Assembly: GCA_965215615.1 (NCBI GenBank)
Contig: OZ244068.1
Location: forward strand, 2,558,504-2,622,503
DNA from: Vicinamibacteria bacterium
GTDB lineage: Bacteria > Acidobacteriota > Vicinamibacteria > Marinacidobacterales > Marinacidobacteraceae
DNA: 64,000 nt
Direction of reading: 5' to 3'
Part shown: positions 4,288-19,923 of the stretch, piece by piece
Layout of the letters: every line of letters starts with the position of its first letter
Numbering within the stretch: position 1 is the stretch's first letter
Notes under the pieces: model-generated
Told to the model about the DNA's origin: nothing
Databases searched by the model: none
What the model saw: the letters and a program-made list of their open reading frames with translations, nothing else
Position numbers and translations under genes: made by a program

Positions 4288-4635
4288 TCAACCGCATTCC
4301 CAATCGAGTCTGGGAAGCAGAGAGAGGAAGCGGTTCCAGTCGTCGGCCATGTCACGAGAGATGACGAAGGTGATTCTTCTGCCGTGCGTCACCACTCGGG
4401 CCGGTACCTTCAGCACCCGTTCCCGGAAACGCCGGATGCTCCATCCGCGCCGGGTGGATCGCTCCATCAATCGTCGCCCGACATGCAGCACCTGGTAAGC
4501 CAGCAGATGCAGCAGGAACAGCGCCTGGTTCGCGGGATCGACGCGATTCTGCTTCTCCGGGTCCGAGGGTGCTTCCTTGCCGGAACGGGGAGCGGATGAC
4601 AGCAGCACCGACTGCTCCGTCATCAGTTCTCCCAT
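4288..4635 (-). pseudogene. Transposase C-terminal fragment (IS4/IS1380-like DDE transposase tail)
   Basis: ...RFRERVLKVPARVVTHGRRITFVISRDMADDW... resembles the conserved C-terminal end of DDE transposases. There is no upstream catalytic region, and the ORF abuts the IS5 element. Confidence 0.3.
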
Positions 4636-5870
4636 GAAAGGTCTGATTTATTCGGCCAACATGTGAGACAATTTCCTTGTTCGCGATGACGCGAAGAGGA
4701 GATGAACATGAGACAGCAAACACTTGCTGAGGTTGGTTTCGACCGGTATCGCAAGAAGACGCGCCGGGATGTGTTTTTGGAGGAGATGGACCGGGTCGTT
4801 CCGTGGGATGAACTGTTCAAGCTGCTGGGGCCGAAGTACCCGAAAGGGAAGCGCGGCCGTCCTCCGATAGGGCTTGAGCGGATGCTTCGGTTGTATTTTC
4901 TACAGCAGTGGTTCGACCTTTCGGACCCGGCAGCGGAGGAGGCGTTGTATGACTCTCATGCGATGCGACGTTTCGTTGGGATTGACCTTGGGCGTGAACG
5001 GGCGCCGGACGAGACGACGCTGTGCAAGTTCCGGCGTTTCCTGGAGCGGCACGACTTCGGGAGCAAGGTGATGGCAATCGTGCGCGAGCATTTGGAGGCG
5101 CATGGCGTACAAGTGTGCAAAGGGACGATGGTGGATGCGACGATCCTGGCGGCGCCCTCTTCAACGAAGAACAAGGCGCGGTCGCGAGATCCGGAGATGG
5201 GTTCGACGAAGAAGGGGAACCGTTGGCATTTCGGGATGAAGGCACACATCGGAGTGGACTCGAAGACGAAGCAGATTCACTCGGTGGAGGCGACGGCGGC
5301 GAATGTTCACGACTCCCAGGTATTGGGGGCGTTGCTGCACGGCGAGGAGACCCGGATATGGGGAGACAAGGCGTATGTGGGTCAGCGGGAGGTGATTCGT
5401 TCGGTGGCGGCGCGGGCACAGGACTTCACCCTTCGCAAGGCGGCGCGTGGCCGTCCGCTGACCGAGGCGGAGAAACGGGGGAATCGGACGAAGTCGCGGG
5501 TTCGCGCTCGCGTGGAACACCCCTTCCTGGTGATGAAGAAGAAGTTCGGCTTCGAGAAGGTGCGCTATCGAGGATTGGCGAAGAACGCTCATCGGCTCCG
5601 CGTAGTCTGCGCGCTGGTCAACCTCTACACGGCGCGACGACCAGTGTTGGCAGCTCTGCCCGTGTAAGGGAGAAGTGCGTCCACCCTCGCAGGGAGGGTG
5701 AAAATCACTCAGAAACGCTACAAGTGATACCCCAAAACTCTCTGCGAAGGCGCGCATCAGCCTCTCACAGGAGAAGTTTCAAACAGAAACAAGGGCGGTA
5801 TTTGGCGATGTACGTTCTCAGAAGGCCATCAAGCTGAAATCAGGCCCTTGTTCAGACCTTCCGTTCTCCA
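4636..5870 (+). mobile_element. IS5-family insertion sequence (intact transposase; imperfect terminal inverted repeats GAAAGGTCTGA... / ...TCAGACCTTCC)
   Basis: Left end gaaaggtctgattt and right end (reverse complement) ggaaggtctgaaca match at 10-11 of 12 positions. The flanking sequence ttctcc(c)at recurs on both sides. The right end lies inside the IS3 orfA reading frame. Confidence 0.55.
4702..5667 (+). CDS. IS5-family DDE transposase
   Basis: 321 aa. Typical IS5-group motifs are present (…HFGMKAHIGVD…SVEATAANVHD…GDKAYVG…). Confidence 0.85.
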   Translation: MNMRQQTLAEVGFDRYRKKTRRDVFLEEMDRVVPWDELFKLLGPKYPKGKRGRPPIGLERMLRLYFLQQWFDLSDPAAEEALYDSHAMRRFVGIDLGRERAPDETTLCKFRRFLERHDFGSKVMAIVREHLEAHGVQVCKGTMVDATILAAPSSTKNKARSRDPEMGSTKKGNRWHFGMKAHIGVDSKTKQIHSVEATAANVHDSQVLGALLHGEETRIWGDKAYVGQREVIRSVAARAQDFTLRKAARGRPLTEAEKRGNRTKSRVRARVEHPFLVMKKKFGFEKVRYRGLAKNAHRLRVVCALVNLYTARRPVLAALPV

Positions 5871-6156
5871 TGACCAACTGGCCGATCTTGGCTCGCAGCC
5901 CCTCCGGATCGCTCTGCGGATCCACCGCGGCCTCCTTCTCCCCGAAGACATCCGAGGCGTGTCGCAACAGGCGCCGCTTCCAGTCCTGAATCTGGCTCGG
6001 ATGGACCTCGAACTGCTGCGACAGATCGGCCATCGTCCGGTCCTGGCGGAGCGCGGCGAGCGCTACCTTGGCCTTGAAGGCCGCTGAGTGATTACGTCGG
6101 GGGCGACGGGGCATCGGGGACTCCTCCTGGAACTCCAGGTGCGGCTGCCGGTCCAC
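5818..6156 (-). pseudogene. IS3-family transposase OrfA (HTH_Tnp_1), probably truncated at its C-terminus by the IS5 insertion; no orfB present
   Basis: MPRRPRRNHSAAFKAKVALAALRQDRTMADLSQQFEVHPSQIQDWKRRLLRHASDVFG…LRAKIGQLVMEN is a classic IS3 OrfA. The frame then runs into the IS5 terminal repeat (ggaaggtctgaac) instead of the usual ...ENDFL... continuation. No rve-domain orfB follows. Confidence 0.65.
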
Positions 6157-6343
6157 TTAACAGGCTGTGGAAAAACTAACGCGGCATTCGACGAGCGATG
6201 CATCCCGTCTGAACGCTCGCCTGGAGGCTCGCTCTTCGTTGCGATTCGCTCGAAATAGCGCTGCTATTGCTCACTCACGCGCCTTGTCAGCCGGGCGCCT
6301 CACCCGTCTCGGTGCTCACGCCAGTTTATCCACAGCCTGTTAA
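6157..6343. mobile_element. MITE-like non-autonomous element, copy 1 (187 bp including TTAA flanks; 20-bp perfect TIR ttaaCAGGCTGTGGAaAAACT / AGTTTaTCCACAGCCTGttaa)
   Basis: Terminal inverted repeats are visible directly. The same ~179-bp core recurs at 13096..13274. Here it sits between the IS3 left end and the orfA start. Confidence 0.75.
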
Positions 6344-6487
6344 CCGGAGCCGAATTTTGTCCAACCGATGGGGTCCACCTCTGCCTGGGGGATGCGGGTC
6401 ACCCTGCTCGATGCCTTCACCTACGAACCCTGACGCAAAAGCACGGTAGGAAGCCCCGCCCGGGTTTGCCAGCAGTGTGGAGCCGGT

Positions 6488-6946
6488 TCAGGAGCCCGCG
6501 GGCGCTGCCGCCTCGTCGCGGGGCGGCAGCCGATCCAGCAGGATGGCCAAGGTGGCTTCGATCCCGGTGAGTCGCTCCTCGATCCGGGTGACCCGCTCGG
6601 AGAGTTGACCGATCTCCTCATGCATCTCTGTTCGGAGCGCGCCGATCTCCTCATGCATCTCGGTTCGGAGCGCGCCGATCTCCTCATGCATCTCGGTTCG
6701 GAGCGCGCCGATCTCCTCATGCATCTCGGTTCGGAGCGAGCCGATCTCCTCATGCATCTCGGTTCGGAGCGAGCCGATCTCCTCATGCATCTCGGCTCGG
6801 AGGTCGCCGATCTCCCCTCGCACGGTGAGCAGGCTCTGGTTGACCGAGATGAAGCTGAGGGCGGCCGCGCCGATCACGGCGGCGAAGGTCGTCACGAGAG
6901 CCGCCATGAGAGCCGTCACAAGCAGCGTGTCCCGGTGTCTCGCCAT
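6488..6946 (-). CDS. Membrane-anchored protein with six tandem 11-residue (hendecad) repeats RTEMHEEIGAL
   Basis: The ORF track gives a 196-aa frame from 7078. The likely start is the internal Met (MARHRDTLLVTALMAALVTTFAAVIGAAALSFI, one TM helix). This is followed by 6.5 copies of an 11-aa repeat encoded by 33-bp tandem DNA repeats. Confidence 0.5.
   Translation of the reverse strand: MARHRDTLLVTALMAALVTTFAAVIGAAALSFISVNQSLLTVRGEIGDLRAEMHEEIGSLRTEMHEEIGSLRTEMHEEIGALRTEMHEEIGALRTEMHEEIGALRTEMHEEIGQLSERVTRIEERLTGIEATLAILLDRLPPRDEAAAPAGS
6605..6815. repeat. 33-bp tandem repeat x6 (+1 partial): gccgatctcctcatgcatctcggttcggagcgc
   Basis: Near-perfect head-to-tail copies are visible in the sequence. 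They are in frame within the 6488..6946 CDS. Confidence 0.85.
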
Positions 6947-7273
6947 CAGACCGGGTTTTCCGCTTCTCACTGTTCGTCCTTCGCCGATGTCAGTATAGGG
7001 GCCGGAGCGGGTTCCGGGCAAAGGCGTTTCCGCCAGGGTGGGTTCGGAGTGGGTTGCATGGTTGGCCATGCAAATCAAGACGCAAAAACGGAGGGTTTTG
7101 GTGCGTCGTGGCCGAAATTTCCCGAAAAATGTGGAAAACCTGCTCCGGTCGCTCTGGTCGCTTCGCTCCCGCCGCTCCCTCCAGCCGGGGCCGGCACGAT
7201 CAACCCGGAAAGCGCCCCGGAAGTGTCAACTTTTCATATCCCATTTCTGTCCACTTTTTCGAATTCCCATTGA

Positions 7274-7312
7274 CACAAGCCGGGGCGCGACCGCTCGCGG
7301 ACGATCACCGCC
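7274..7312. repeat. 38-bp fragment identical (1 mismatch) to an internal segment of the AAA-ATPase gene at 13578..13615
   Basis: cacaagccggggcg(c/g)gaccgctcgcggacgatcaccgc is present at both loci. Here it lies in non-coding DNA, suggesting a remnant of a deleted paralogue. Confidence 0.4.
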
Positions 7313-7476
7313 TGGGGGATGCGGGGAGTCGCCCCGGGCATCTTCCCGAACTCCGGAAGCCGATTTCGCCCCCCACTTCCGGAATCGAGATCCTCAGCCC
7401 GGCGGATTTTGTGTCAGGCAAAGATTGAACCTTGTCTTGCGAGGCTTGCTGACAAAACTGGAGGAATATGCGGGAT

Positions 7477-7561
7477 GCCGGGGACTCCTCCTGGAATTCC
7501 AGACGCGGCTGCCGGTCCACCTGACCGGATCCGAATTTTGTCCAACCGATGGGATCCACCT
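7477..7561. repeat. Solo IS3-family left-end remnant (IRL plus first ~14 codons of orfA), second copy of the sequence at 6113..6156+6344..6381
   Basis: The ~85-bp match includes ...ggggactcctcctggaattccag.cgcggctgccggtccac... (reverse complement encodes VDRQP(R/H)LEFQEESP) and ccgaattttgtccaaccgatggg(a/g)tccacctc. This copy lacks the MITE. Confidence 0.45.
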
Positions 7562-7657
7562 CAATGGACGCAGGAACGGGCTGACCCCGGAGCATCGTGC
7601 AGACCATTCTCGACGAAGAGTGACGCGCCTCGTCTTCGATCGCGACGGGGAACGCGA

Positions 7658-8791
7658 TCACCGTATGGAGGAGGCAGTCTGATTCGCCATCCGGGAGAAG
7701 TAGTCGGCGTGGCCCGCGAGGATCCGTTCCTCGGCCTCGCGGTTCGGTTCGAGGGACCATTCGCCGGGTTCGCGGGTTCCGCCGAGGAGGATTCCGTCGG
7801 CGCGGGGCATCATGTAGAGGCCTCCCATCAGGGCGATGTATCGCACCTCCGGCTGGGGCAGCAGCACGGTGAGCTGGCCCTTCAGCGGAACGAGCTCCTC
7901 GTCGCCCACCAGATCGCGGGCCCCGATTCCGGTGCAGTTCACGACATGGCGTTCGGCGAGCGAGGCGACCTCGTCGAGAGACCGGAAGTCACGGATGCGG
8001 ATCCGGCCGCCGGCAAGCTGGAAATCCCGCATCACCGCGCCAAGATAGACCGGGGGCTCGATCATCATCGTCGTGTACTGGCGGGCGAACCGGGACGGAA
8101 AGGGATGGGTTCCCGGGGCCAATTCGCGGGAATCGGGGAAGAGGTCGGCCAGCGGATCGGGGCGGGTGCTGCCGCCGAAAGCGACTTCGCTCAGCGCGTA
8201 GTTCGGTAACCAGTACACCCCGTAGCGGCTTCCCACCATGTCCTGGAACATGCGCTGGGAGATGCGGGCCGCCCGCTCGAAGCGGGCTTCGAAGGCGGCG
8301 GTATGGACCCGGGCATCGGAGACCGAATAGGGTCCCCACTGGGCACAGGCCACGTTCGAGGTGGTGCGGGGCGGCAGGTCTTTCGCGTGGATGGTGACCG
8401 CCACGCCGCGATCCTGAAGAAGACGGGCGGTCGCGAGTCCCACCGCGCCGCAGCCGATGACGGCAGCGCGGGCGGGGAGCGGGCCGTCCCGGAGCAACTC
8501 CTCCACCGCGAGAAAGGCGCTGCCCCAGGACAGACTGACTCCCCCTCCTCCGTGGCCATAGTTGTGGACCAGCAGGCGGCCGCCGCCCAGATCTTCGCGC
8601 TCCACCCGGAAGCCGGATGGACGATACGGGCGGAGCCCCGCCACCGTGCGGATGACCCGATCCGGGGAAACCCGAACCGGGGGAAGACGGAAGTCCGGAG
8701 CGGGTCGGGTCGCGGGGGCCGGCCTCCCGGCGCAGGCGGCGACGAGTCCGGGAAACGCGGCGAGCGCGCCGCGGCGAGAGATCGGAGGCAT
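7658..8791 (-). CDS. FAD-dependent oxidoreductase, D-amino-acid oxidase (DAO) family, Tat-signal
   Basis: 377 aa with an N-terminal RRGALAAF twin-arginine motif, a GXGXXG-type dinucleotide-binding region (VIGCGAVGLATA) and a DAO-like C-terminal region. Confidence 0.65.
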   Translation of the reverse strand: MPPISRRGALAAFPGLVAACAGRPAPATRPAPDFRLPPVRVSPDRVIRTVAGLRPYRPSGFRVEREDLGGGRLLVHNYGHGGGGVSLSWGSAFLAVEELLRDGPLPARAAVIGCGAVGLATARLLQDRGVAVTIHAKDLPPRTTSNVACAQWGPYSVSDARVHTAAFEARFERAARISQRMFQDMVGSRYGVYWLPNYALSEVAFGGSTRPDPLADLFPDSRELAPGTHPFPSRFARQYTTMMIEPPVYLGAVMRDFQLAGGRIRIRDFRSLDEVASLAERHVVNCTGIGARDLVGDEELVPLKGQLTVLLPQPEVRYIALMGGLYMMPRADGILLGGTREPGEWSLEPNREAEERILAGHADYFSRMANQTASSIR

Positions 8792-8842
8792 CGGCGTGGG
8801 TTCCCTATACTAGGTGCCTTCCCTTTCGAGGAGGTTCACGGC

Positions 8843-9568
8843 ATGGATCGCAGATTGTTCCTGAAGGCAAGCGCCGCGGTGAGTGCCGCCGGTGTCGTCG
8901 GCGTGAACGATCGGGCGGAAGCGCTCGAACACGAGATGATGCGGCTTCTCGAAGCGCCGGAGCGGCCCCCGCTCGCGAAGGCGGAAGGCGAGGACGCGCT
9001 CTCCGTCATGCCAGAGCGGCCGACGCTCGTGGATTTCTTCGAGCACCGTTTCGCCCCGGCTTCCCACGTGCTCCAAAGCGCCACCCGCGCCCGGAAGTTC
9101 GGCATGAGCGAAGAGATCATCCTCGCCTGCCTGCTCCACGACATCTCGGTCACCAATCTGGTGCGGGCCGACCACGGCTGGTGGTGCGCGCAGATGATCG
9201 AGCCCTACGTCTCCGAGAAAGTGGCGTGGGCGATCCGCTACCACCAGGCGCTGCGGTTCTTCCCGGACCCTTCGGTGGGCTACGAGTATCCGGAGATGTA
9301 CGCGCGGATGTTCGGGGCCGACTACGAGCCGGAGCCGTACCTCAAGGCGGCCCACGAATACGCGAGGAACCACAAGTGGTACATGGAGGCGCGTTCCATC
9401 ACGCTCCACGATGACTACAGCTTCGAGCGGGATGTCGAGGTCTCGATCGATCCGTTCGTGGACATCATCGGCCGACACTTCAAGCAGCCAAGGGAAGGGC
9501 TCGGTTACGACAACAGCCCGACCGCGCACATGTGGCGGACGATGATCAACCCGCGTCGCCGTCTGTGA
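8843..9568 (+). CDS. HD-domain metal-dependent phosphohydrolase/oxygenase-like protein with Tat signal
   Basis: Starts MDRRLFLKASAAVSAAG (Tat motif). Carries H…LLHDI…H…H…D residues of the HD superfamily. The longer ORF-track frame from 8303 overlaps the divergent DAO gene and is rejected. Confidence 0.5.
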   Translation: MDRRLFLKASAAVSAAGVVGVNDRAEALEHEMMRLLEAPERPPLAKAEGEDALSVMPERPTLVDFFEHRFAPASHVLQSATRARKFGMSEEIILACLLHDISVTNLVRADHGWWCAQMIEPYVSEKVAWAIRYHQALRFFPDPSVGYEYPEMYARMFGADYEPEPYLKAAHEYARNHKWYMEARSITLHDDYSFERDVEVSIDPFVDIIGRHFKQPREGLGYDNSPTAHMWRTMINPRRRL

Positions 9569-9570
9569 AG

Positions 9571-10041
9571 ATGAGCCGGTATCGAACTGCCGGCTGCCTC
9601 GTCCTCGGGGTTCTTCTCGCCGGCTGCTCCGCCCGCACTCCGTCCAAGCCGCTTCGGGTGTATGTATATGCGGCTCCGGTCGAGGAGGAAGCGGAAGCGG
9701 CCCGGCTCCACGAGGCACTCGCCACCGTGCGCGAGGCAGTGGACGGGCGCGACCGCTGGTTCCGGTTGGTGGATACCGGCAACGGGTTCGATGTGGGCCT
9801 CCGCCTCATCCGGTACGACATCGACCGCGCGCGGCCGGGCCTCTACGCCGGGGCCATCGAGACGGAGCGCATCCACGCGGTCGAGGGAGTCGCGATCATC
9901 GCCGAGCAGACGGAGCGGTTGACCGGCTTCGACACCCGCGAGGTGGGGTTTTCGCACCTCCAGTTCGCTGCCGGCGACCTCGTCGAAAAGCTGGAGCGCT
10001 ACTGCCGCGAGAACGAGGGCCTGCTCGCCAGGGCCAGGTAA
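9571..10041 (+). CDS. Hypothetical lipoprotein
   Basis: Signal peptide plus lipobox MSRYRTAGCLVLGVLLAGCS. No recognisable domain. Confidence 0.45.
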   Translation: MSRYRTAGCLVLGVLLAGCSARTPSKPLRVYVYAAPVEEEAEAARLHEALATVREAVDGRDRWFRLVDTGNGFDVGLRLIRYDIDRARPGLYAGAIETERIHAVEGVAIIAEQTERLTGFDTREVGFSHLQFAAGDLVEKLERYCRENEGLLARAR

Positions 10042-10269
10042 GGGGAGCGTTACTCGTCCATCAAGTCCAGCAAACCGGCGGTATCGTCGAGATCCACGCC
10101 GGGCTGAAGACCCCGGCCACGGGTGTTGAGCCGCCTCGGTGCCATGGAGCGACGGAGACGGGCCATCCGCTCCCGTGGGGCATCCTCGATCAACGCCTCC
10201 AGGCTGATTCCGAGACTCGCGGCCTCGTCCAGCCGAACCGTAAGCCGCATGGCATCAGCATGGAAGGCA

Positions 10270-11583
10270 TCAGTGCGAGCGGCGGCGCTCCAGCGCCAGA
10301 TAGAGCAGGACCCCTGCCCCGGCGGTGAGGAGCCCGAGGGTGGATTCGACCGGACGCTCCAGGAGCGTGTAGCCGAGAGTCCAGCCGCTCGCCGCGAGGA
10401 AGAACAGCGGAACCCAAGGATAGAGCGGCGTCCGGAAGCGGCCGGGGATCGCGCCTTCCACCCGGTTTCGGCGCAGGACGAACACTCCGGCCACGGTGGC
10501 GGCGGTACAGAGCCCGAGCACGAACCCGGCGTAGAGCAGGATCTGCTCGAAGGTTCCGGAGTAGATCAGGACGAGAGTGAGGCCGGACTGGAGAAAAAGA
10601 GCCCGGTGCGGGACACCGTTCCGGCCCGTTTCGCCGAGCGAGCGGAGGAGCGGCTGGTCTTCTCCCATCGCCCGCACCACCCGCGGGCCGAGGAAGACCA
10701 TCGCGCTTACCGTGGAGGCGAGCACCAGCGCCAGCACCCCGGACATCGCCCGTCCGGCGGCGGGGCCGAGGATCCGCTCGGCGGCGAGATAACCGACTTC
10801 GATCCTTCCGGCGAGTTCTTCGATGGGGACCGCCCGCAGGATGACGAGATTCACCAGCAGATAGAGGACGGTGACCAGCAGGGTTCCCCCGACGAGCGCT
10901 CGCGCGAGGCGTTCCGGACGCTTCAGATCCCCGACGATATAGACGGCGGCGTTCCAGCCGGTGTACGCGTAGGACACATAGACGAGGGACACCGCGAAGC
11001 CGGGAGTGAGGAGCAGCGCGGCATCGCCCGGCAGCGGAGCGACGCTCCGGGCGGCCCCCGAAGCCAGCACTCCCAGAAAGCAGAAGGCCGCGACCAGGAC
11101 GATCTTGATCGCGGTGAGCAGGTTGTTCAGGCCGCTGCCGAAACGGACCGGGAAGGAGTGGGCGACCGTGAAGAGGAGGACCGAGCCGGCGGCGAAGTGG
11201 ACGGCCGGAAGTCCGGGGAAAACCGGCTGGAGATAGGTGGCCATCGCCATCGCGGCGAGTGCGGTGGGCGCGGCGAAGCCCATCGTCGAGGAGAGGCAGC
11301 CGGCCGCGAAACCGGCGGCCGGGTGGAAGGTTCGGCGGAGCAGGGCGTATTCGCCGCCGGAGCGGGGAAGCGCAGCCCCGAGTTCGCCGTAAACGAGCGC
11401 CCCGGAAAGGGCCACCAGACCGCCCACCACCCACAGCAGGAGCGCCGGGAAGGCGGAGGGAACGGCGGCCACCTGGAAGCCGAGGCTCGTGAATACCCCG
11501 GTCCCGATCATGTTCGCCACCACGAACATGGCGGCGGTCCAGATGGAAAGGCCGGAGCGCCCGCCCCCACCTCCTCCGGTCAC
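10270..11583 (-). CDS. APC-family amino acid permease
   Basis: 437 aa with about 12 predicted TM helices. The N-terminal ...NMIGTGVFTSLG... signature is typical of amino-acid/polyamine/organocation transporters. Confidence 0.8.
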   Translation of the reverse strand: MTGGGGGGRSGLSIWTAAMFVVANMIGTGVFTSLGFQVAAVPSAFPALLLWVVGGLVALSGALVYGELGAALPRSGGEYALLRRTFHPAAGFAAGCLSSTMGFAAPTALAAMAMATYLQPVFPGLPAVHFAAGSVLLFTVAHSFPVRFGSGLNNLLTAIKIVLVAAFCFLGVLASGAARSVAPLPGDAALLLTPGFAVSLVYVSYAYTGWNAAVYIVGDLKRPERLARALVGGTLLVTVLYLLVNLVILRAVPIEELAGRIEVGYLAAERILGPAAGRAMSGVLALVLASTVSAMVFLGPRVVRAMGEDQPLLRSLGETGRNGVPHRALFLQSGLTLVLIYSGTFEQILLYAGFVLGLCTAATVAGVFVLRRNRVEGAIPGRFRTPLYPWVPLFFLAASGWTLGYTLLERPVESTLGLLTAGAGVLLYLALERRRSH

Positions 11584-11596
11584 GGTTTCGCGGAGC

Positions 11597-12070
11597 TCAG
11601 CGCGCCGCGATCATGTCGATTTCGAGCAGCGCTCCGAGCGGGATGTCCCTGACCGCCACCGTGGTCCGCGCCGGCGGGATCGCGCCTTCCGGAAAGTAGG
11701 TGGCATAGACCTCGTTCATCGCCGCGAAATCGTTCACGTCCACGAGGAAGACTCCGGCCCGCACCACGTCCTCGAAGCCGAGCCCGGCCTCCGCCAGCAG
11801 CGCCCCGAGGTTCTGCATGACCTGGTGGGTCTGCTCGGTGATTCCGCCCGGAACGAGCCCCTCCCCCTCGTGGTCGAGGGCGATCTGGCCGGCGAGGAAG
11901 ACGAAGCCACCCACATCCACGCCCGCCGAATAGGGGCCGACCGGAGGGATGCGGCCGCTGAGGCGGGTCTTTTCCGGCCCCTGGGCGATGACCACTTCCT
12001 CGGGTTCCGGGGGAGGCGCGCCGCAGGAGAGGAGAGCGGCGAACGGGAGGAAAAGCAGACCTTTGCGCAT
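11597..12070 (-). CDS. ridA: RidA/YjgF-family reactive-intermediate deaminase, lipoprotein signal
   Basis: 157 aa. The YjgF fold signature (…GPYSAGV…FLAGQIA…RTTV…) follows an N-terminal LLSCG lipobox. Confidence 0.75.
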   Translation of the reverse strand: MRKGLLFLPFAALLSCGAPPPEPEEVVIAQGPEKTRLSGRIPPVGPYSAGVDVGGFVFLAGQIALDHEGEGLVPGGITEQTHQVMQNLGALLAEAGLGFEDVVRAGVFLVDVNDFAAMNEVYATYFPEGAIPPARTTVAVRDIPLGALLEIDMIAAR

Positions 12071-12602
12071 GGCGGGATACTACCGGGTCATGTGGACCCA
12101 ACCCGGCACCGACGAGTGCGCTCCCTACTATCTGGACATGATCCGGCTCGTTCCCGACGGGCCGCTTCCGGACCTCGCGCTCGCCGAGATGGACGCGCTG
12201 TCGGCACTCCTCGCCGGAATCGCCGAAGAGGATTCCCGCCGTGGCTACGCGCCGGGCAAGTGGTCCATCCGCGAAGTCGTGGGACACGTCGCCGACACCG
12301 AACGGGTGATGGCGTTCCGGGCGCTCGCGTTCGCTCGCGGGGACCGGTCCCCCCTTCCCTCGATGGAGCAGGACGACTACGCCCGCATCGCCCGTCACGG
12401 CGAACGCCCGCTCGCGTCGCTGGTCGAAGAGCTTCGGGCCGTGCGGAGCGCGACCGTGAGCCTCATGCGCCCGCTCCGCCCGGAGGAGCTCGATCACAAC
12501 GGGGAGGCGAGCGGCTCCCGCTTCACGGTGCGGGCGCTTTGCTACATGACGGTGGGGCACGCCATCCACCACCGGCGCGAGCTCGAAACCCGGTATCTGT
12601 GA
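12069..12602 (+). CDS. DinB/YfiT-like (DinB_2) metal-dependent protein
   Basis: Starts MAGYYRVMWTQ. Carries the conserved His triad region (…VVGHVADTER…MTVGHAIHHRREL…). Its start codon overlaps the divergent ridA start (CATG). Confidence 0.65.
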   Translation: MAGYYRVMWTQPGTDECAPYYLDMIRLVPDGPLPDLALAEMDALSALLAGIAEEDSRRGYAPGKWSIREVVGHVADTERVMAFRALAFARGDRSPLPSMEQDDYARIARHGERPLASLVEELRAVRSATVSLMRPLRPEELDHNGEASGSRFTVRALCYMTVGHAIHHRRELETRYL

Positions 12603-14369
12603 GTGCAATACTCCGGTGCGATACGGTCCTTCAACACGACGGGCCCGGTCGAGCCGGGGGAGCACTACTGCATCTCGCCGCTGGATCGGCTGGAGCTGGA
12701 AGAGGTTCTCGGGCTGATTCGTGGCGAGAAGTACTTCGTCCTCCACGCGCCGCGACAGACCGGAAAGACTTCCACGCTGCTCGCGCTCCGCGACCTGCTG
12801 AACTCGGGTTCCGTCGGGGATTTCCGCTGCGTGTACGCGAGCCTCGAAGCTGGTCGGAACGGGGACGTGGAGCGGGCGATGCGGAGTGTCCTCGGCGAGA
12901 TCGGGGTACGGGCGGAAGACACCCTGGGCGACGAGCTGGTAGAGCGTTCCTGGCCGGAAACCCTGGCTACTGCGGGTCCGGATCGTGCGCTGCGGGCGGT
13001 CCTGGGGCGCTGGGCGGCAGCCGCTCCGAGTCCCCTTGTGCTCTTCCTGGACGAAGTGGACACCCTCACGGGGAACGCGCTCCTTTCGCTGTTAACAGGC
13101 TGTGGAAAAACTAACGCGGCATTCGACGAGCGATGCATCCCGTCTGAACGCTCGCCTAGAGGCTCGCTCTTCGTTGCGTTTCGGTCGAAATAGCGCTGCT
13201 ATGGCTCCCTCACGCGCCTTGTCAGACGGGCGCTTCACCCGTCTCGGTGCTCACGCCAGTTTCTCCACAGCCTGTTAAGCCAGTTGCGGCTCGGTTACGA
13301 GCAGCGCCCGAAACGCTTCCCGCAGTCCGTGGTCCTGTGCGGTCTTCGCGATGTGCGGGATTACCGGGCACCCGGAGTGGCGGGAAGCCCGTTCAACATC
13401 AAGGCGGAGTCGTTGCGGCTCGGCGACTTCGACGAAGCGGAAGTCCGGGAGCTGCTCGGCCAGCACACGGCGGAGACCGGCCAGCGCTTCGACGAAGAAG
13501 CGCTGGAACTGGTGTGGAGCCATACCCAGGGCCAGCCGTGGCTCGTGAACGCCTTGGCCCATGACGCCTGCTTCCGGCACAAGCCGGGGCGGGACCGCTC
13601 GCGGACGATCACCGCAGCCGACATCCGGGATGCCCGCGAGCGGCTGATCCGGCGGCGGGAGACGCACCTCGGGCAGTTGGCGGTGAAGCTCCGCGAGGGC
13701 CGGGTGCGCCGGGTGATTGAGCCGATCCTGAGCGGGACGGCGGGATACGACGCGACGAGCCAGGACATCGAATACACGCGGGATCTGGGGCTCATCGCCC
13801 GGGACGCGCCGATCCGGATCGCCAACCCGATCTACGCGGAAGTGATCCCCCGGGAACTCACGAACGCGATGGAAGAGGGGCTGACGGAGGACACGGCGTG
13901 GTATGCGGACCCGGATGGTGGGTTGCTGCTGGAGAAGCTGATGGGGGCGTTTCAGGAGTTCTTCCGGGAGCACAGCGAGCACTGGGCGGGGCGGTTCGAC
14001 TACGCGGAAGCGGGTCCGCAGTTGATCCTTCAGGGGTTCGTGCATCGGATCGTGAACGGTGGCGGCCGATTGGAGCGGGAGTACGGGATCGGGCGGGGGC
14101 GGATGGACCTTTTGATCGCGTGGCCGCGGGGCAAGGAGGAGGACCAGTTCGTCGTGGAATGCAAGATGGCGGACAAGAGAGCGCACAGGGGAAAGGACCA
14201 CGCGATCGCGGAGGGATTGCGCCAGACGGCGGGCTATCTCGAGCGGCTGGGTTCCCGGATCGGGCACCTGGTGGTCTTCGACCGGGATCCGGAGAAGTCG
14301 TGGGAAGAGAAGATCTACCGGTGCGACGAGGATTACGAGGGGAAGACGATCACCGTCTGGGGGATGTGA
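12603..14369 (+). pseudogene. AAA-ATPase-like (archaeal-ATPase type) protein with C-terminal PD-(D/E)XK nuclease domain, interrupted by a MITE insertion
   Basis: The N-terminal part has Walker A (HAPRQTGKTS) and Walker B (LFLDEVD). The reading frame is broken by the 13092..13278 element. The C-terminal part resumes in the same frame (…FPQSVVLCGLRDVRDY… ; GRMDLLIAWP…FVVECK PD-(D/E)XK motif). Removing 183 bp restores one 590-aa ORF. Confidence 0.75.
13092..13278. mobile_element. MITE-like element, copy 2 (187 bp with TTAA flanks), inserted in the AAA-ATPase gene
   Basis: Same termini (ttaaCAGGCTGTGG…CCACAGCCTGttaa) and ~95% identical core to 6157..6343. Confidence 0.75.
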
Positions 14370-15576
14370 GGGCCGTCCGGGGAATCCGGATCGCGGCCAC
14401 GAGCGAGACCGCGCCCACCGCGGCGCAGGCGAGGGCGAGCGTCACGTAGTCGAAGCGGATGATGAGCGCCCCGGCGGCGATGCTCGCCGCTCCGGCGGAA
14501 GTCCAGTTCCAGGTTTCGGCGACTGCCTGGCGGCGGATCTTCCGCTGCGGATCCTTTCCTTCGGAGAGCAGCGCGCTCGAAGCCACGAAGGCGAGGCACC
14601 ATCCGAGCCCGAGCAGGTAGAGGGCCGCACCGAGCAGCCAGCCGATTTCGGGCGCGGAAGCGGCGACGAGGCCGGAGGCGAGCAGCAGGAAACCGCCCGC
14701 GGCGATCACCGGGCGCTCGGTGAAGCGGTCGCAGAGCATCCCGACCAGCGGAGACAGCAGGAACATGCCGAGCGTGTGAGCACCCATGACCGCGCCGAGC
14801 CCGGAGAGCGAGCCGCCGGTATCCACCACGTGCAGCGGGGTCATGCTCATCAGCAGCACCATCGAGGCCTGGGCCGCAACCAGCGCCAGGATCGCGAGCC
14901 GGTAGCGCGACCGGTTCGCTTCCGGGGCAAAGCGGACGACGGAGGTTTGCGGGCGGGCGCGGCGGAGCGAACGCTGCGCCTTGAGCGCGCGGCTTCGGAA
15001 CAGGAGCAGGCTGGCGCTTCCGAAGAGCAGCCCGGCGAGCAGGTAGGCGAGCGGAATCGCGTCCGGATTCCCGGGGCCGATCGCCAGCTCGATGCCACCG
15101 AAGATCGCCGGCGCACCGAAACTGCCCGCAACCGCCACCCAGACCACGAGGCCGATGGCGCGGCCGCTTCGGTGGGGCGGGACCAGCGCGGCGGCCGCAT
15201 AGCGGGTGAGGTGGTACGCGGCGTGACCGCATCCGACCATCAGAGTGGCGATCAGATACAGGAGGAACGCATCGCCCCGGAAAGCGGCGAAACCGGAGGC
15301 GAGCGCTCCGACGGCGGCGAAGGCGAACCCGCAGGCGAGGGTGTCCGGCCGACCGATTCGCGGGATCCACAGCGACAAAAGCGGCGCGCCGGCAGCGACT
15401 CCGAAGATCAGGAGCGCGCCCGGGCCGCCGATCCAGAGCGAATCGGCCAGGTACCAGGCGGAGACGATCGGGATCGAGATGATGATGAGCAGGTAGGCGG
15501 TCGCGCCCATCGCTGCCGCGCCGAGCAGCGTGAGGAAGGCGCGCGCCGGGCGCAGCGAAGGTTCCAATCCGGTCAA
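14350..15576 (-). CDS. MFS transporter
   Basis: 408 aa with about 12 TM helices and typical MFS loop motifs (…GRIGRPDTL…). Confidence 0.75.
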   Translation of the reverse strand: MTGLEPSLRPARAFLTLLGAAAMGATAYLLIIISIPIVSAWYLADSLWIGGPGALLIFGVAAGAPLLSLWIPRIGRPDTLACGFAFAAVGALASGFAAFRGDAFLLYLIATLMVGCGHAAYHLTRYAAAALVPPHRSGRAIGLVVWVAVAGSFGAPAIFGGIELAIGPGNPDAIPLAYLLAGLLFGSASLLLFRSRALKAQRSLRRARPQTSVVRFAPEANRSRYRLAILALVAAQASMVLLMSMTPLHVVDTGGSLSGLGAVMGAHTLGMFLLSPLVGMLCDRFTERPVIAAGGFLLLASGLVAASAPEIGWLLGAALYLLGLGWCLAFVASSALLSEGKDPQRKIRRQAVAETWNWTSAGAASIAAGALIIRFDYVTLALACAAVGAVSLVAAIRIPRTALTSPRR

Positions 15577-16886: not shown

Positions 16887-17936
16887 TCAACCTCGGCGCG
16901 GGGCAGTACACAGGAGCTTCGAGAAGAAGTCCGTCTCGCTCGTGGCCTCGGTGGCCGCGGCAACCACGGCTTCGTCGGAAGCGGCGGCGAGGTCCTTCAT
17001 GCGCTCCGCCGGCCAGCCAGCCGACGAAATCTCGATGTTCCGGGAAGCCAGCATCGTCCGCACCAGCGCCGCACGCCCTTCTACGAACCCTTCCGTGCGT
17101 CCTTCTACGAACCCTTCCGTGCGTCCTTTCGCGAACCCTTCCGCGAGCGTCACGCCGAGCAGCGGATCGTCCTCGGAGCGGGTTCCCTCGCGGTCGCCGA
17201 GCATCCGACCCACCCGTCGCAGCACTTCGGTCGTGGTCGCCGAGATCGTCTTCTCGTTCAGGGCGCGGTGGATTTCGGTCGCCGTCCAGCCCGGAAACGC
17301 CCGGCTCGCTTTCGATTGGACGAACTGGCCCTCCTCCAGCAGGTAGATCCGAAGCTCCGGCCGGAGTCCCGAGCGCCGCCGCGGGAACTCCGCATCCGGA
17401 ACTTCCACCCAAAGCTCCGGAAAGCCCCACTCCTCGTACAGCTTCGCCTTGTCGCGACGGGTGTCCCGGGTGATGTCCACCTCCAGCACCACGTCCGGAT
17501 ACGGATCCCTCCCGACGCTCAGAAACCTCCCGTTCCCGGACACTCGCGAAGGACCCAGGAAGATCAACTGATCGGGGCACATGACGCGCACGAAACCGGT
17601 TGCCGGGTTCCGCACCCGGAGCTGGCCCGAGCCGCCGAAGGCCATCGGAGCACCCCGCACCATCGCGATCCTCTCCGCGAGGACGGCGAGACGCACTCCC
17701 GGTTGCTCGTGGGTGAGGCTCGGCCCATCCTCTGCCATCCAGGCGAGACCCGACTCCGAATCGAAGAACTCGATCTTGCGGTCGTCTTCCGGGAGCGCGT
17801 CGTACTCGGCGAGCGTCATCCGCTGCGACACGCAACCCGCGAACTCCAGCTCCGAAACGGACGACCAGCGCGAACGGCGACGCGCTCGCTTGGAGGCCCT
17901 TTGGGGGGCCTTTTGTGGAGCTACGGCCGTCTCCAT
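16887..17936 (-). CDS. Uma2-family (DUF820) restriction-endonuclease-like protein with C-terminal EG/KG-repeat region and DUF4351-like tail, tandem copy A (349 aa; 3 repeat units)
   Basis: …MTLAEYDALPEDDRKIEFFDSESGLAWMAEDGPSLTHEQ…YPDVVLEVDITRDT…KAKLYEEWGFPELWVEVPDAE… are Uma2 hallmarks. The C-terminus has (GRTEGFVE)x3. The likely true start is the internal MTLAEY Met. Confidence 0.7.
   Translation of the reverse strand: METAVAPQKAPQRASKRARRRSRWSSVSELEFAGCVSQRMTLAEYDALPEDDRKIEFFDSESGLAWMAEDGPSLTHEQPGVRLAVLAERIAMVRGAPMAFGGSGQLRVRNPATGFVRVMCPDQLIFLGPSRVSGNGRFLSVGRDPYPDVVLEVDITRDTRRDKAKLYEEWGFPELWVEVPDAEFPRRRSGLRPELRIYLLEEGQFVQSKASRAFPGWTATEIHRALNEKTISATTTEVLRRVGRMLGDREGTRSEDDPLLGVTLAEGFAKGRTEGFVEGRTEGFVEGRAALVRTMLASRNIEISSAGWPAERMKDLAAASDEAVVAAATEATSETDFFSKLLCTAPRRG
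17077..17148. repeat. 24-bp in-frame tandem repeat (ccttctacgaacccttccgtgcgt) x3 in Uma2 copy A (x2 in copy C at ~19087-19134, x1 in copy B)
   Basis: Visible directly. It encodes the (E)GFVEGRT units. Confidence 0.8.
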
Positions 17937-17938
17937 CG

Positions 17939-18919
17939 CTACCGGAGCCTCGAGAAGAAGTCCGTTTCGCTCGTGGCCGCGGTGGCCGCGGCAACCACGG
18001 CTTCGTCGGAAGCGGCGGCGAGGTCCTTCATGCGCTCCGCCGGCCAGCCAGCCGACGAAATCTCGATGTTCCGGGAAGCCAGCATCGTCCGCACCAGCGC
18101 CGCACGCCCTTTCGCACGCCCTTCCGCGAGCGTCGCGCCGAGCAGCGGATCGTCCTCGGAGCGGGTTCCCTCGCGGTCACCGAGCACCCGACCCACCCGT
18201 CGCAGCACTTCGGTCGTGGTCGCCGAGATCGTCTTCTCGTTCAGGGCGCGGTGGATTTCGATCGCCGTCCAGCCCGGAAACGCCCGGCTCGCTTTCGATT
18301 GGACGAAATGGCCTTCCTCCAAGAGATATATCCGTAGCTCCGGCCGGAGTCCCGAGCGCCGCCGCGGGAACTCCGCATCCGGAACTTCCACCCAAAGCTC
18401 CGGAAAGCCCCACTCCTCGTACAGCTTCGCCTTGTCGCGCCGGGTGTCCCGGGTGATGTCCACCTCCAGCACCACGTCCGGATACGGATCCCTCCCGACG
18501 CTCAGAAACCTCCCGTTCCCGGACACTCGCGAAGGATCCAGGAAGATCAACTGATCGGGGCACATGACGCGCACGAAACCGGTTGCCGGGTTCCGCACCC
18601 GGAGCTGGCCCGAGCCGCCGAAGGCCATGGGAGCACCCCGCACCATCGCGATCTGTTGCGCGAGGACGGCGAGACGCACTCCCGGCTGCTCGTGGGTGAG
18701 GCTCGGCCCATCCTCTGCCATCCAGGCGAGACCCGACTCCGAATCGAAGAACTCGATCTTGCGGTCGTCTTCCGGGAGCGCGTCGTACTCGGCGAGCGTC
18801 ATCCGCTGCGACACGCAACCCGCGAACTCCAGCTCCGAAACGGACGACCAGCGCGAACGGCGACGCGCCCGCTTGGAGGCCCTTTGGGGGGCCTTTTGTG
18901 GAGCTACGGCCGTCTCCAT
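17939..18919 (-). CDS. Uma2-family endonuclease-like protein, tandem copy B (326 aa; 1 repeat unit)
   Basis: About 97% identical to copy A. Its start codon lies 3 nt from the stop of copy C, and its own stop lies 3 nt from the start of copy A. Confidence 0.7.
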   Translation of the reverse strand: METAVAPQKAPQRASKRARRRSRWSSVSELEFAGCVSQRMTLAEYDALPEDDRKIEFFDSESGLAWMAEDGPSLTHEQPGVRLAVLAQQIAMVRGAPMAFGGSGQLRVRNPATGFVRVMCPDQLIFLDPSRVSGNGRFLSVGRDPYPDVVLEVDITRDTRRDKAKLYEEWGFPELWVEVPDAEFPRRRSGLRPELRIYLLEEGHFVQSKASRAFPGWTAIEIHRALNEKTISATTTEVLRRVGRVLGDREGTRSEDDPLLGATLAEGRAKGRAALVRTMLASRNIEISSAGWPAERMKDLAAASDEAVVAAATAATSETDFFSRLR

Positions 18920-18921
18920 CG

Positions 18922-19923
18922 CTACCGGAGCCTCAGGAAGAAGTCCGCCTCGCTCGTGGCACCGGTGGCCGCGGCCACGACGGCTTCGTCGGAAGCGGCG
19001 GCGAGATCTCTCATCAGGTCTGCCGACCAGCCAGCCGACGAAACCCCGATGTTCCGCGAAGCCAGCATCGTCCGCACCAGCGCCGCACGCCCTTCTACGA
19101 ACCCTTCCGTGCGTCCTTTCGCGAACCCTTCCGCGAGCGTCACGCCGAGCAGCGGATCGTCCTCGGAGCGGGTTCCCTCGCGGTCGCCGAGCATCCGCCC
19201 CACCCGTCGCAGCACTTCGGTCGTGGTCGCCGAGATCGTCTTCTCGTTCAGGGCGCGGTGGATTTCGATCGCCGTCCAGCCCGGAAACGCCCGGCTCGCT
19301 TTCGATTGGACGAACTGGCCCTCCTCCAAGAGATAGATCCGAAGCTCCGGCCGGAGTCCCGAGCGCCGCCGCGGGAACTCCGCATCCGGAACTTCCACCC
19401 AAAGCTCCGGAAAGCCCCACTCCTCGTACAGCTTCGCCTTGTCGCGACGGGTGTCCCGGGTGATGTCCACCTCCAGCACCACGTCCGGATACGGATCCCT
19501 CCCGACGCTCAGAAACCTCCCGTTCCCGGACACTCGCGAAGGATCCAGGAAGATCAACTGATCGGGGCACATGACGCGCACGAAACCGGTTCCCGGGTTC
19601 CGCACCCGGAGCTGGCCCGAGCCGCCGAAGGCCATGGGAGCACCCCGCACCATCGCGATCTGTTGCGCGAGGACGGCGAGACGCACTCCCGGCTGCTCGT
19701 GGGTGAGGCTCGGCCCATCCTCTGCCATCCAGGCGAGACCCGACTCCGAGTCGAAGAACTCGATCTTGCGGTCGTCTTCCGGGAGCGCGTCGTACTCGGC
19801 GAGCGTCATCCGCTGCGACACGCAACCCGCGAACTCCAGCTCCGAAACGGACGACCAGCGCGAACGGCGACGCGCCCTTTCGGGAACCACCGCCGCGTCC
19901 ACTACCGCCACCACTCCAGCCAT
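18922..19923 (-). CDS. Uma2-family endonuclease-like protein, tandem copy C (333 aa; 2 repeat units; divergent N- and C-termini)
   Basis: Same family hallmarks. The N-terminus is MAGVVAVVDAAV… instead of METAVAPQ…. The ORF-track extension to 20049 is rejected. Confidence 0.65.
   Translation of the reverse strand: MAGVVAVVDAAVVPERARRRSRWSSVSELEFAGCVSQRMTLAEYDALPEDDRKIEFFDSESGLAWMAEDGPSLTHEQPGVRLAVLAQQIAMVRGAPMAFGGSGQLRVRNPGTGFVRVMCPDQLIFLDPSRVSGNGRFLSVGRDPYPDVVLEVDITRDTRRDKAKLYEEWGFPELWVEVPDAEFPRRRSGLRPELRIYLLEEGQFVQSKASRAFPGWTAIEIHRALNEKTISATTTEVLRRVGRMLGDREGTRSEDDPLLGVTLAEGFAKGRTEGFVEGRAALVRTMLASRNIGVSSAGWSADLMRDLAAASDEAVVAAATGATSEADFFLRLR

Follow-up and report, generated by a model that had tools for sequence, protein, structure and literature searches.

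A 179-bp repeat with inverted ends and 4-bp target duplications in a Vicinamibacteria genome: a probable MITE, one copy of which splits an ATPase gene

A sequence of 187 bp occurs twice, in the same orientation, in the 64,000-nucleotide stretch of Vicinamibacteria DNA that we analysed (referred to as the window): copy A at 6157-6343, among the remains of insertion sequences, and copy B at 13092-13278, inside a gene. This arrangement raises the question of whether the repeat is a mobile element and, if so, to which class it belongs, how it selects its target and which type of enzyme moves it. Both copies have the form TTAA-CAGGCTGTGGAAAAACT...AGTTTATCCACAGCCTG-TTAA with a core of 179 bp. When they were aligned, we counted 8 mismatches over 187 bp (95.7% identity), and the similarity ended precisely at the outer TTAA, beyond which the flanks were unrelated. 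The first-pass annotation of this DNA had described a recurrence of equal length with an interior identity of about 95% and TTAA on each side of both copies, and these statements proved to be correct. Its perfect terminal inverted repeat (TIR) of 20 bp could not be reproduced. Instead, the TIR comprises 17 bp with 16 matching positions (CAGGCTGTGGAaAAACT vs. CAGGCTGTGGAtAAACT; copy B has g at the mismatch position) and is perfect for 11 bp from the tip, or for 15 bp if the palindromic TTAA is included. The end motif CAGGCTGTGGAWAAACT (up to three mismatches) was present four times in the 64-kb window, compared with 0.11 expected occurrences, and none of 100 shuffled sequences reached this number. 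The nhmmer profile of the repeat family described below recovered the two copies and no third one in the 64 kb. The number of two is thus right for the window, but not beyond it, where the element is a member of a very large, structured repeat family. The insertion of copy B had also been called recent, which holds in a relative sense, the two copies being 4% apart. The only internal ORF of the element encodes 58 amino acids, and its homologs are solely ORFs read through other element copies. A DnaA box in the TIR (TTATCCACA) is found in the subfamily of the window; it is not conserved in relatives (TGCTGAAAA, TGGTGAAAC) and is probably coincidental.

Copy B is located at the codons Leu-Leu-Ser of an ATPase/putative nuclease gene. 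When we deleted positions 13096-13278 (183 bp, the core plus one TTAA), the two halves fused in frame, as had been claimed, to a single ORF of 527 amino acids reading ...GNALLSLLSQLRLGYEQRPKRF.... The restored protein aligned end to end with thousands of homologs without a gap at the junction, and it was colinear with P0001 (the closest, 97% identity), P0002, P0007 and others. As for the original label AAA-ATPase/PD-(D/E)XK, the first half is well founded, since AAA_22 and AAA_35 scored above their cut-offs in the restored protein, whereas the only sign of the second half is a sub-threshold PDDEXK_9 match (E = 0.0069, residues 429-484). PADLOC did not assign the disrupted ATPase to any defence system. 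The empty site was identified in two relatives (L001, 93% nucleotide identity; L113, 89%), which lack the element and carry one 4-mer, TTGA, where the window carries two. No intact ortholog bearing the element was encountered; the homologs are without this sequence. Copy B has evidently been inserted into a gene that is intact apart from it, and the annotation should show 12603-14369 as one gene broken by a mobile element and not as two genes. The simplest reading of its target is that a synonymous change from TTG to TTA created the site before the insertion took place.

Copy A resides in a cluster of dead or mobile elements (3.9-7.6 kb), which is missing from the syntenic relative L001. This cluster consists of a C-terminal fragment of IS1380 (4288-4635), a complete IS5-family element with the ends GAAAGGTCTGA / GGAAGGTCTGAAC, an orfA remnant and a solo IS end; the IS1380 fragment lies 1.5 kb and the IS5-family element 290 bp from the repeat. 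Copy A was found about 35 bp within the end of the orfA remnant and 43 bp upstream of the likely ATG of the truncated orfA. The position first assigned to it, between the terminal repeat and the orfA start of an IS3-family remnant, is accurate, but the IS3 assignment is weakly supported: HTH_Tnp_1 passes its cut-off, whereas the IS3 model (E = 2.5e-5) stays below its own. A paralogous IS end (7479-7562) shows 93-95% identity to the left and to the right of the insertion point and reads a single CTGA in place of TTAA-core-TTAA. All three unfilled sequences (the two orthologous sites of copy B and the paralog of copy A) read YTGA, not TTAA, and since this applies to both window sites, the insertions require earlier mutations that created TTAA. 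Both copies are best read as insertions, with empty sites for each. The small copy number in the window is all that would speak for the opposite notion that no insertion occurred and that we are dealing with a chance repeat or a gene-native sequence. An identity of 96% over 187 bp against unrelated flanks, homologs without the sequence and 41 further family copies elsewhere leave this notion practically no probability, and on the sequence comparisons we regard it as already refuted. The coordinates of all features are summarized in Table 1. Elsewhere in the window, a low-GC island at 47-49 kb contains a GmrSD gene and no transposase.

Table 1. Positions of the two element copies and of the features surrounding them in the window
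Feature	Positions	Strand	Evidence and remarks
Copy A, left target-site duplication (TTAA)	6157..6160	.	Read directly; unfilled paralog 7479-7562 has one 4-mer (CTGA)
Copy A, 179-bp core	6161..6339	+	TIRs 6161-6177 and 6323-6339; nhmmer family profile E = 4.5e-50
Copy A, right target-site duplication (TTAA)	6340..6343	.	Read directly
Copy B, left target-site duplication (TTAA)	13092..13095	.	Single TTGA in L001 and L113 at the same codon position (CTG TTG AGC)
Copy B, 179-bp core	13096..13274	+	TIRs 13096-13112 and 13258-13274; nhmmer E = 3e-50
Copy B, right target-site duplication (TTAA)	13275..13278	.	Read directly
AAA-ATPase gene	12603..14369	+	AAA_22/AAA_35, weak C-terminal PDDEXK_9; interrupted by copy B, leaving ORFs 12603-13193 and 13284-14369
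Transposase orfA remnant (HTH_Tnp_1; IS3-like)	5818..6156	-	Leader holds copy A; 3' end truncated by the IS5-family element
End segment of this IS remnant on the far side of copy A	6344..6381	-	95% identical to 7524-7562
Paralogous 84-bp IS end without element (unfilled copy A site)	7479..7562	-	GGTCCAC CTGA CCGG
IS5-family insertion sequence	4636..5862	+	Transposase 4702-5667; NF033581 332.8 bits (cut-off 140)

The target preference of the element can be judged from other sequences with similar ends. An exact-match scan of species-representative genomes for TTAA plus TIR yielded 15 hits and a metagenome scan for TAA plus TIR 69 hits. The interior of the window element was shared by none of these 15 genome and 69 metagenome hits, and when they were compared by blastn, little aligned past the 20-22-nt ends (at most 46 nt at 84%, at one locus). 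An inverted partner end was located within 500 bp in 40 of the 69 metagenome loci, and in these loci and in several genomes (Nitrospirales, Terriglobales, Desulfobacteraceae, two Pseudomonas and one 'Deltaproteobacteria' MAG) it lay 83-442 bp away. The partner ends (CAGGATGCTGAAAAAG, CAGGGTGCTGAAAAAG, CAGGCTGCGGAAAAA, CAGGCCGTTGAAAAACG) belong to short elements that have the end motif CAGG.TG..GAAAAA in common across phyla. Other end-motif hits (Paenibacillus, phage contigs) were DnaA-box clusters that chance to contain TGTGGAWAA. The same explanation applies to viral-contig hits of the TIR pattern, which are not element copies, and three further scans of viral contigs, one with a related end motif and two with interior motifs, gave nothing.

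Inspection of the flanks of 25 independent insertions indicated identical 4-mers in 16 of them, 15 times CTAA and once TTAA. Because CTAA is non-palindromic, the 15 CTAA pairs are direct repeats and not extensions of the TIRs. The base that begins the left flank was associated with the one that begins the right flank (Fisher p = 0.0055, 25 insertions), with 17 C/C, 4 T/T and 4 discordant outer/inner combinations. Elements outside the query selection were flanked twice by CTAG/CTAG and once by TTAG/TTAG. Since relatives carry CTAA, CTAG, TTAG and TCAA, the element is not TTAA-specific. From the TTAA target duplication postulated at the outset, the 4-bp duplication can be retained and the specificity for TTAA must be dropped. 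Judging from these flanks, YTAR is the target, used in either orientation and duplicated over 4 bp. IS5 targets YTAR as well, making 4-bp duplications.

The same data bear on the idea that the element is a MITE of the IS630/Tc1-mariner type, for which the true duplication would be TA, the ends ACAGG...CCTGT and the target NTAN. In fact, the sequence TTAA allows the reading T-TA-A, the tip ACAGG presumably resembles mariner-type ends, and a variant in the relative L105 fits a TA duplication with GGAGCC ends. However, a 2-bp duplication predicts no co-variation between the base outside TA on the left and the base inside on the right, and it is this pair of bases that is associated in the 25 insertions. 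The same trend was seen in the lineage family, and neither a DDE_3 nor an IS630 gene was observed. We consider a mariner-type origin very improbable. The eukaryotic piggyBac superfamily, which is TTAA-specific and has the ends CCC...GGG, is alike in the TTAA duplication seen at both window copies, but it differs in the flanks of the relatives (CTAA, CTAG, TTAG, TCAA), in the ends, which are not CCC...GGG here, and in the bacterial host. A set of short elements in Nitrospirales, Terriglobales, Desulfobacteraceae and Pseudomonas is defined by CAGG.TG..GAAAAA and a YTAR duplication, and finding their transposase is a well-posed problem.

Relatives of the interior became accessible with the 58-amino acid ORF as probe. 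An indexed protein search with this ORF returned one weak match (P0123), whereas an ORF profile run against 1.84 billion protein representatives gave 102 matches at E <= 1e-3, of which 39 reached E <= 1e-10. Many of the 102 representatives contain 2-4 tandem units per ORF or carry the unit as N- or C-terminal tail, and dozens of 'hypothetical proteins' in the databases are read-throughs of the 179-bp repeat. On the DNA level, we analysed the loci L105-L110, which are long metagenome-assembled contigs from related uncultured bacteria, with a GC content close to that of the window. Here, 41 nhmmer hits, nearly all intergenic, were counted in about 117 kb, a number that gives no genome-wide density since the contigs were picked for carrying the repeat. 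In five of these six relatives' loci, all selected as carriers, the repeat is dense in intergenic DNA and often forms tandem or mosaic arrays. Compared with these dense loci, the window has few copies (2 in 64 kb) and L001 has none (22 kb).

The unit is exactly 179 bp long in L106, L107, L108 and L110. Some family units measure 197-198 bp owing to an 18-nt insert in one arm, and the overall range is 169-198 bp. The family ends (CAGCCTGTGGTGAAACCC...) equal the window TIR at 13 of 18 positions, and the TIR core CAGSCTGTGG is conserved across the family. The flanks in this lineage resemble YTAR, although decay is frequent (TCAA/TCAA, TTAA/TCAA three times, CTAG/CTAA, TTAA/TTAG). A further filled/empty pair is formed by L108, where 197 bp are bordered by CTAG and CTAA (15270-15466), and L107, which has a single TTAG at 18850, in the SMC stop codon. 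Three whole units joined by CTCG make up L106 9995-10559, and runs of left-arm or right-arm half-units occupy L106 761-1843. Such arrays, with internal junctions of the types CAAA..TTCA and CTCG, look like products of recombination or duplication rather than of transposition. In the searchable literature, no account of the end motif or of the family was found, the matches being unrelated primers and one unrelated paper, and a family with a fixed 179-bp unit has apparently not been described previously.

An abundant intergenic family with mosaic arrays would also be compatible with a REP/BIME- or PATE-like repeat that is moved as single-stranded DNA by an HUH enzyme (RAYT or IS200/IS605-type). 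In that case, the right tetranucleotide would be borne by the element and would mimic a duplication, and empty-site comparisons cannot tell the two apart when both tetranucleotides are identical. The strand-specific stability of the hairpin (see below) and the lack of a DDE partner in the window and the fetched loci fit as well. However, an element-borne tetranucleotide should stay constant, whereas the 4-mer varies (CTAA, TTAA, CTAG, TTAG, TCAA) and still matches between left and right. Moreover, TTAG occurs in the orientation in which most copies have CTAA, the terminal inverted repeats are clear, and no Y1 or RAYT gene was present in the gene table of any fetched locus. Movement by an HUH enzyme is hardly to be expected on this evidence.

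An autonomous element with the same ends was found neither in the window, nor in about 0.6 Mb of fetched loci, nor among the long ORF-carrying proteins, ten of which were inspected and contained no transposase domain. The earlier statement that the window holds no cognate transposase stands. Its one IS5-family element, the transposase of which has plasmid relatives of the IS5/ISKpn26 types, was rejected as partner, since a comparison of the TIR with IS5-type ends, which had been recommended, gave no match between the TIR and the ends of this element (GGAAGGTCTGAAC). IS1380 was discarded as source of the ends because it is of the CCCG type (TIR of a Stenotrophomonas IS1380, CCCGTCTTATTCACGAG; putative end of the window fragment, CCCGGTGAAC). 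ISAs1/H-repeat elements were discarded as well: ISAs1 ends read CAGGG and H-repeat duplications comprise 8-10 bp, and the ends of the E. coli H-repeat next to yhhI (CAGGGAAAGAT / CAGGGCAAGAT) are different. A tblastn search of all fetched loci with the IS5 transposase gave nothing, and all pairs of YTAR-flanked inverted repeats detected at a spacing of 0.6-3 kb were unrelated. One such pair, in L039, was checked and encloses a large ORF without transposase features. No recognisable transposase was encoded by ORFs adjoining lone end-motif hits.

With respect to its class, the element shares the general properties of MITEs: it is shorter than about 500 bp, bounded by TIRs and non-coding, it makes a duplication with single-site empty loci, and many dispersed copies exist. 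Every structural hallmark of a MITE is present except a demonstrated autonomous partner. The term 'MITE-like' had been introduced with the first-pass annotation, and the small size, the TIRs, the lack of coding capacity, the 4-bp target duplication and the empty sites for both copies all bear it out. As regards mobilisation by an IS5 enzyme, we observed the YTAR target with a 4-bp duplication, which lies within the 2-4 bp to be expected, but no ends matching an IS5 element that bears a transposase. The element resembles IS5-derived bacterial MITEs and the related eukaryotic PIF/Harbinger-Tourist pairing in being short, non-coding and TIR-bounded, with a YTAR-type target and a small fixed duplication. 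Its ends (CAGSCTGTGG...) are unlike those of the IS5-group element of the window and of E. coli IS5. It behaves like an IS5-type MITE, and derivation from a known IS5 element cannot be assigned because the ends differ.

Taken together, we consider it probable that the element is a non-autonomous DNA transposon of the cut-and-paste type, a MITE, most likely moved in trans at 4-bp YTAR-type sites. According to this scenario, a transposase encoded elsewhere would bind the two ends, probably at the terminal core of about 10 nt (CAGSCTGTGG), and would insert the element at a 4-bp YTAR-type site via 4-bp staggered cuts, as IS5-family enzymes do. Repair of the stagger would duplicate the 4-mer, which is TTAA at both window sites. 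That a DDE transposase acts in trans and chooses its targets in the manner of the IS5 family is inferred, and so is any role of the hairpin described below. Several observations do not fit the MITE account easily. The flanking 4-mers in relatives often differ by one base, the unfilled homologs of both window sites are YTGA and not TTAA, the array junctions resemble recombination or duplication, and the outer stem of the hairpin past the first 10 bp varies more than the interior, an unusual pattern for ends that function solely as transposase sites. The general understanding of MITEs is not changed by these data.

The whole element is an imperfect palindrome and, when transcribed or single-stranded, is predicted to fold into a stem of about 46 bp with a branched tip. 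RNA folding had been proposed as a check, and each copy indeed folded into one long hairpin. For copy A, the calculated energy was -71 kcal/mol (plus strand) vs. -93.1 kcal/mol (minus strand; z = -7.3), and for copy B -76.9 kcal/mol (plus strand) vs. -100.6 kcal/mol (minus strand; z = -9.4). For the consensus fold, nine diverse family members were aligned on the minus strand. This alignment contained 62 pairs with 95.7% of the cells paired and compensatory changes at 24 pairs. None of 500 shuffles reached the observed values for any of the measures, and slid controls were 34-41% paired. The consensus energy was -106.8 kcal/mol on the minus strand vs. -78.8 kcal/mol on the plus strand. All 18 members that we folded had the more stable structure on the minus strand, with a mean difference of 16 kcal/mol, but the members are related and do not represent 18 independent tests. 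We treat this strand preference as real in terms of predicted stability, although it is unexplained.

These results raise the possibility that a structured RNA or single-stranded DNA hairpin, acting, for example, in mRNA processing or stability, as terminator, as antisense or in protein binding, is the main reason for the persistence of the family, and that transposition only accounts for its spread. This explanation overlaps with the MITE account without excluding it, and we consider it unlikely. It draws on the strong covariation, which includes interior helices that no transposase needs, on the lower energy of the minus strand and on an invariant G.U pair at alignment columns 44/139. On the other hand, any palindromic DNA in which subfamilies originate from fold-back or arm conversion will also give apparently compensatory changes. 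When wobble-pair columns were counted symmetrically, 18 were obtained for the minus and 8 for the plus strand (p ~0.08), the plus strand has three invariant U.G pairs, and the interrelatedness of the folded members applies here, too. Searches of Rfam 15 gave no match for window positions 5500-14500 at E <= 1 except one chance lncRNA elsewhere, and none for L106 at E <= 0.5. No promoter- or terminator-like site was found, and the orientation of the element to neighbouring genes (8 co-directional vs. 3 in a biased sample) indicated no clear bias.

The L105 variant is of particular relevance in this context. In one interior arm, 40 of 40 bases are unchanged, whereas on both sides 12 of the 22 terminal nucleotides have been exchanged, with the termini still pairing. 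Because the interior is retained almost base for base while the exchanged 22-nt termini still pair, the interior might be read as a functional, strand-specific RNA or single-stranded DNA module (stem of about 46 bp, conserved wobble pairs, branched tip) carried on interchangeable transposon ends. We consider this reading distinctly unlikely. If it were true, the hairpin itself would be under selection, and instead of plain selfish DNA, the family would represent a mobile RNA with a regulatory or processing role. With its conserved strand-biased hairpin, the family is a reasonable candidate for examining a function at the RNA level.

Hairpin-forming intergenic repeats are known from other bacteria. 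Correia/NEMIS repeats of Neisseria and ERIC/IRU repeats of enterobacteria are TIR-bounded intergenic sequences of 100-160 bp that are co-transcribed, form long RNA hairpins and occasionally occur in genes; Correia elements duplicate TA. The present element is similar as a hairpin-forming intergenic repeat that is occasionally located within genes, but there is no sequence relationship, and we know of no reports on head-to-tail mosaic arrays of half-units for Correia/NEMIS or ERIC/IRU. REPs are 20-40 nt long and have neither TIRs nor target duplications, and REP/BIME and REPIN sequences are mobilised by RAYTs. Copy number, intergenic location, hairpin and mosaic clusters are alike here, but the 179-bp unit has a TIR and a duplication, no RAYT was present in the gene tables of the loci, and no sequence is shared with BIMEs. 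Neighbours in the related loci include GWxTD, TonB-receptor and LptFG.

Both insertions in the window are bounded by TTAA on both sides (left-hand copies at 6157-6160 and 13092-13095), whereas all three unfilled homologous sites carry YTGA. The latter are CTGA at 7520-7523 of the window and TTGA at about 10566-10569 of L001 and about 968-971 of L113, two loci of relatives with an intact ATPase gene. This difference could reflect either a mutation that created the target or some feature of the mechanism. In relatives, we also found three flank pairs that combine TTAA with TCAA.

To these flanking data we can add a solo end-like sequence (CAGYYTGTGG...GTCGGGCAAG), which is located directly beside the insertion site in two loci of related bacteria. 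Since it is present both where the site is filled (L108, 15466-15500) and where it is empty (L107, 18850-18880), these data suggest that sites of the YTAR type, the 4-bp target duplication of the family, are favored as targets when they adjoin existing ends. Such a preference would aid array formation. Many of the 102 representative "proteins" matched by the profile of the element's ORF are read-throughs of the element or of element arrays, and repeat-encoded C-terminal tails were found on an EF-G fragment and a thioesterase from public databases (P0152, P0148).

In many of the metagenome elements of about 200 bp from other phyla (L014, L038, L040, L041, L063, L074 and others), the end motif occurs a third time, in the interior. 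This internal copy is found some 75 bp in from the left end and shares the orientation of that end, with CGCG or CACG instead of YTAR at its flanks. Some family members carry, in either arm, an 18-20-nt module with the sequence CCCAGTTCTCCCGGTGGGGG or the complementary sequence, which leads to units of 197-198 bp, and a counterpart in the opposite arm is not always present.

The TIR of the element includes the DnaA-box consensus, TTATCCACA at one end and TTTTCCACA at the other (6327-6335 and 6166-6174 of the window). The TIR query also retrieved oriC-like DnaA-box clusters of Paenibacillus and paired boxes on phage contigs (loci L008, L013, L017-L033). The box in the TIR is probably a coincidence because it is not conserved in related elements.

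Features of the window and examples of family members with the 18-20-nt module
Feature	Position	Strand	Remark
IS1380 C-terminal fragment	4288-4635	minus	one side of the IS5-family element
Complete IS5-family element	4636-5862		4626-5871 with flanking repeats
Truncated orfA	5818-6156	minus	other side of the IS5-family element
ORF, 196-aa protein	6488-7078	minus	contains 33-bp tandem repeat (6576-6839)
Type IV restriction-like gene	within 46875-48731		GmrSD_N and GmrSD_C; low-GC island
Module example, L106	7476-7672		
Module example, L106	1040-1700		
Module example, L108	15270-15466		
Module example, L110	3004-3201		

The IS5-family element is surrounded by an imperfect direct repeat of 9/10 bp (left GTTCTCCCAT, right GTTCTCCAT), and elements of the IS5 subgroup would not usually produce a duplication of 9-10 bp. 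The tandem repeat of the 196-aa ORF consists of about eight units and encodes the 11-residue repeat EMHEEIGxLRT. DNA homologous to this region (L001, 7707-8095 and 9671-10044) adjoins the intact ATPase gene, and thus the neighborhood is rearranged.

The low-GC island with the GmrSD gene (48-53% GC vs. 66%) was probably acquired horizontally. A tandem array of three roughly 1-kb units, which are 87-98% identical, occupies 16910-19406; their minus-strand genes are paralogs with a length of about 350 aa.
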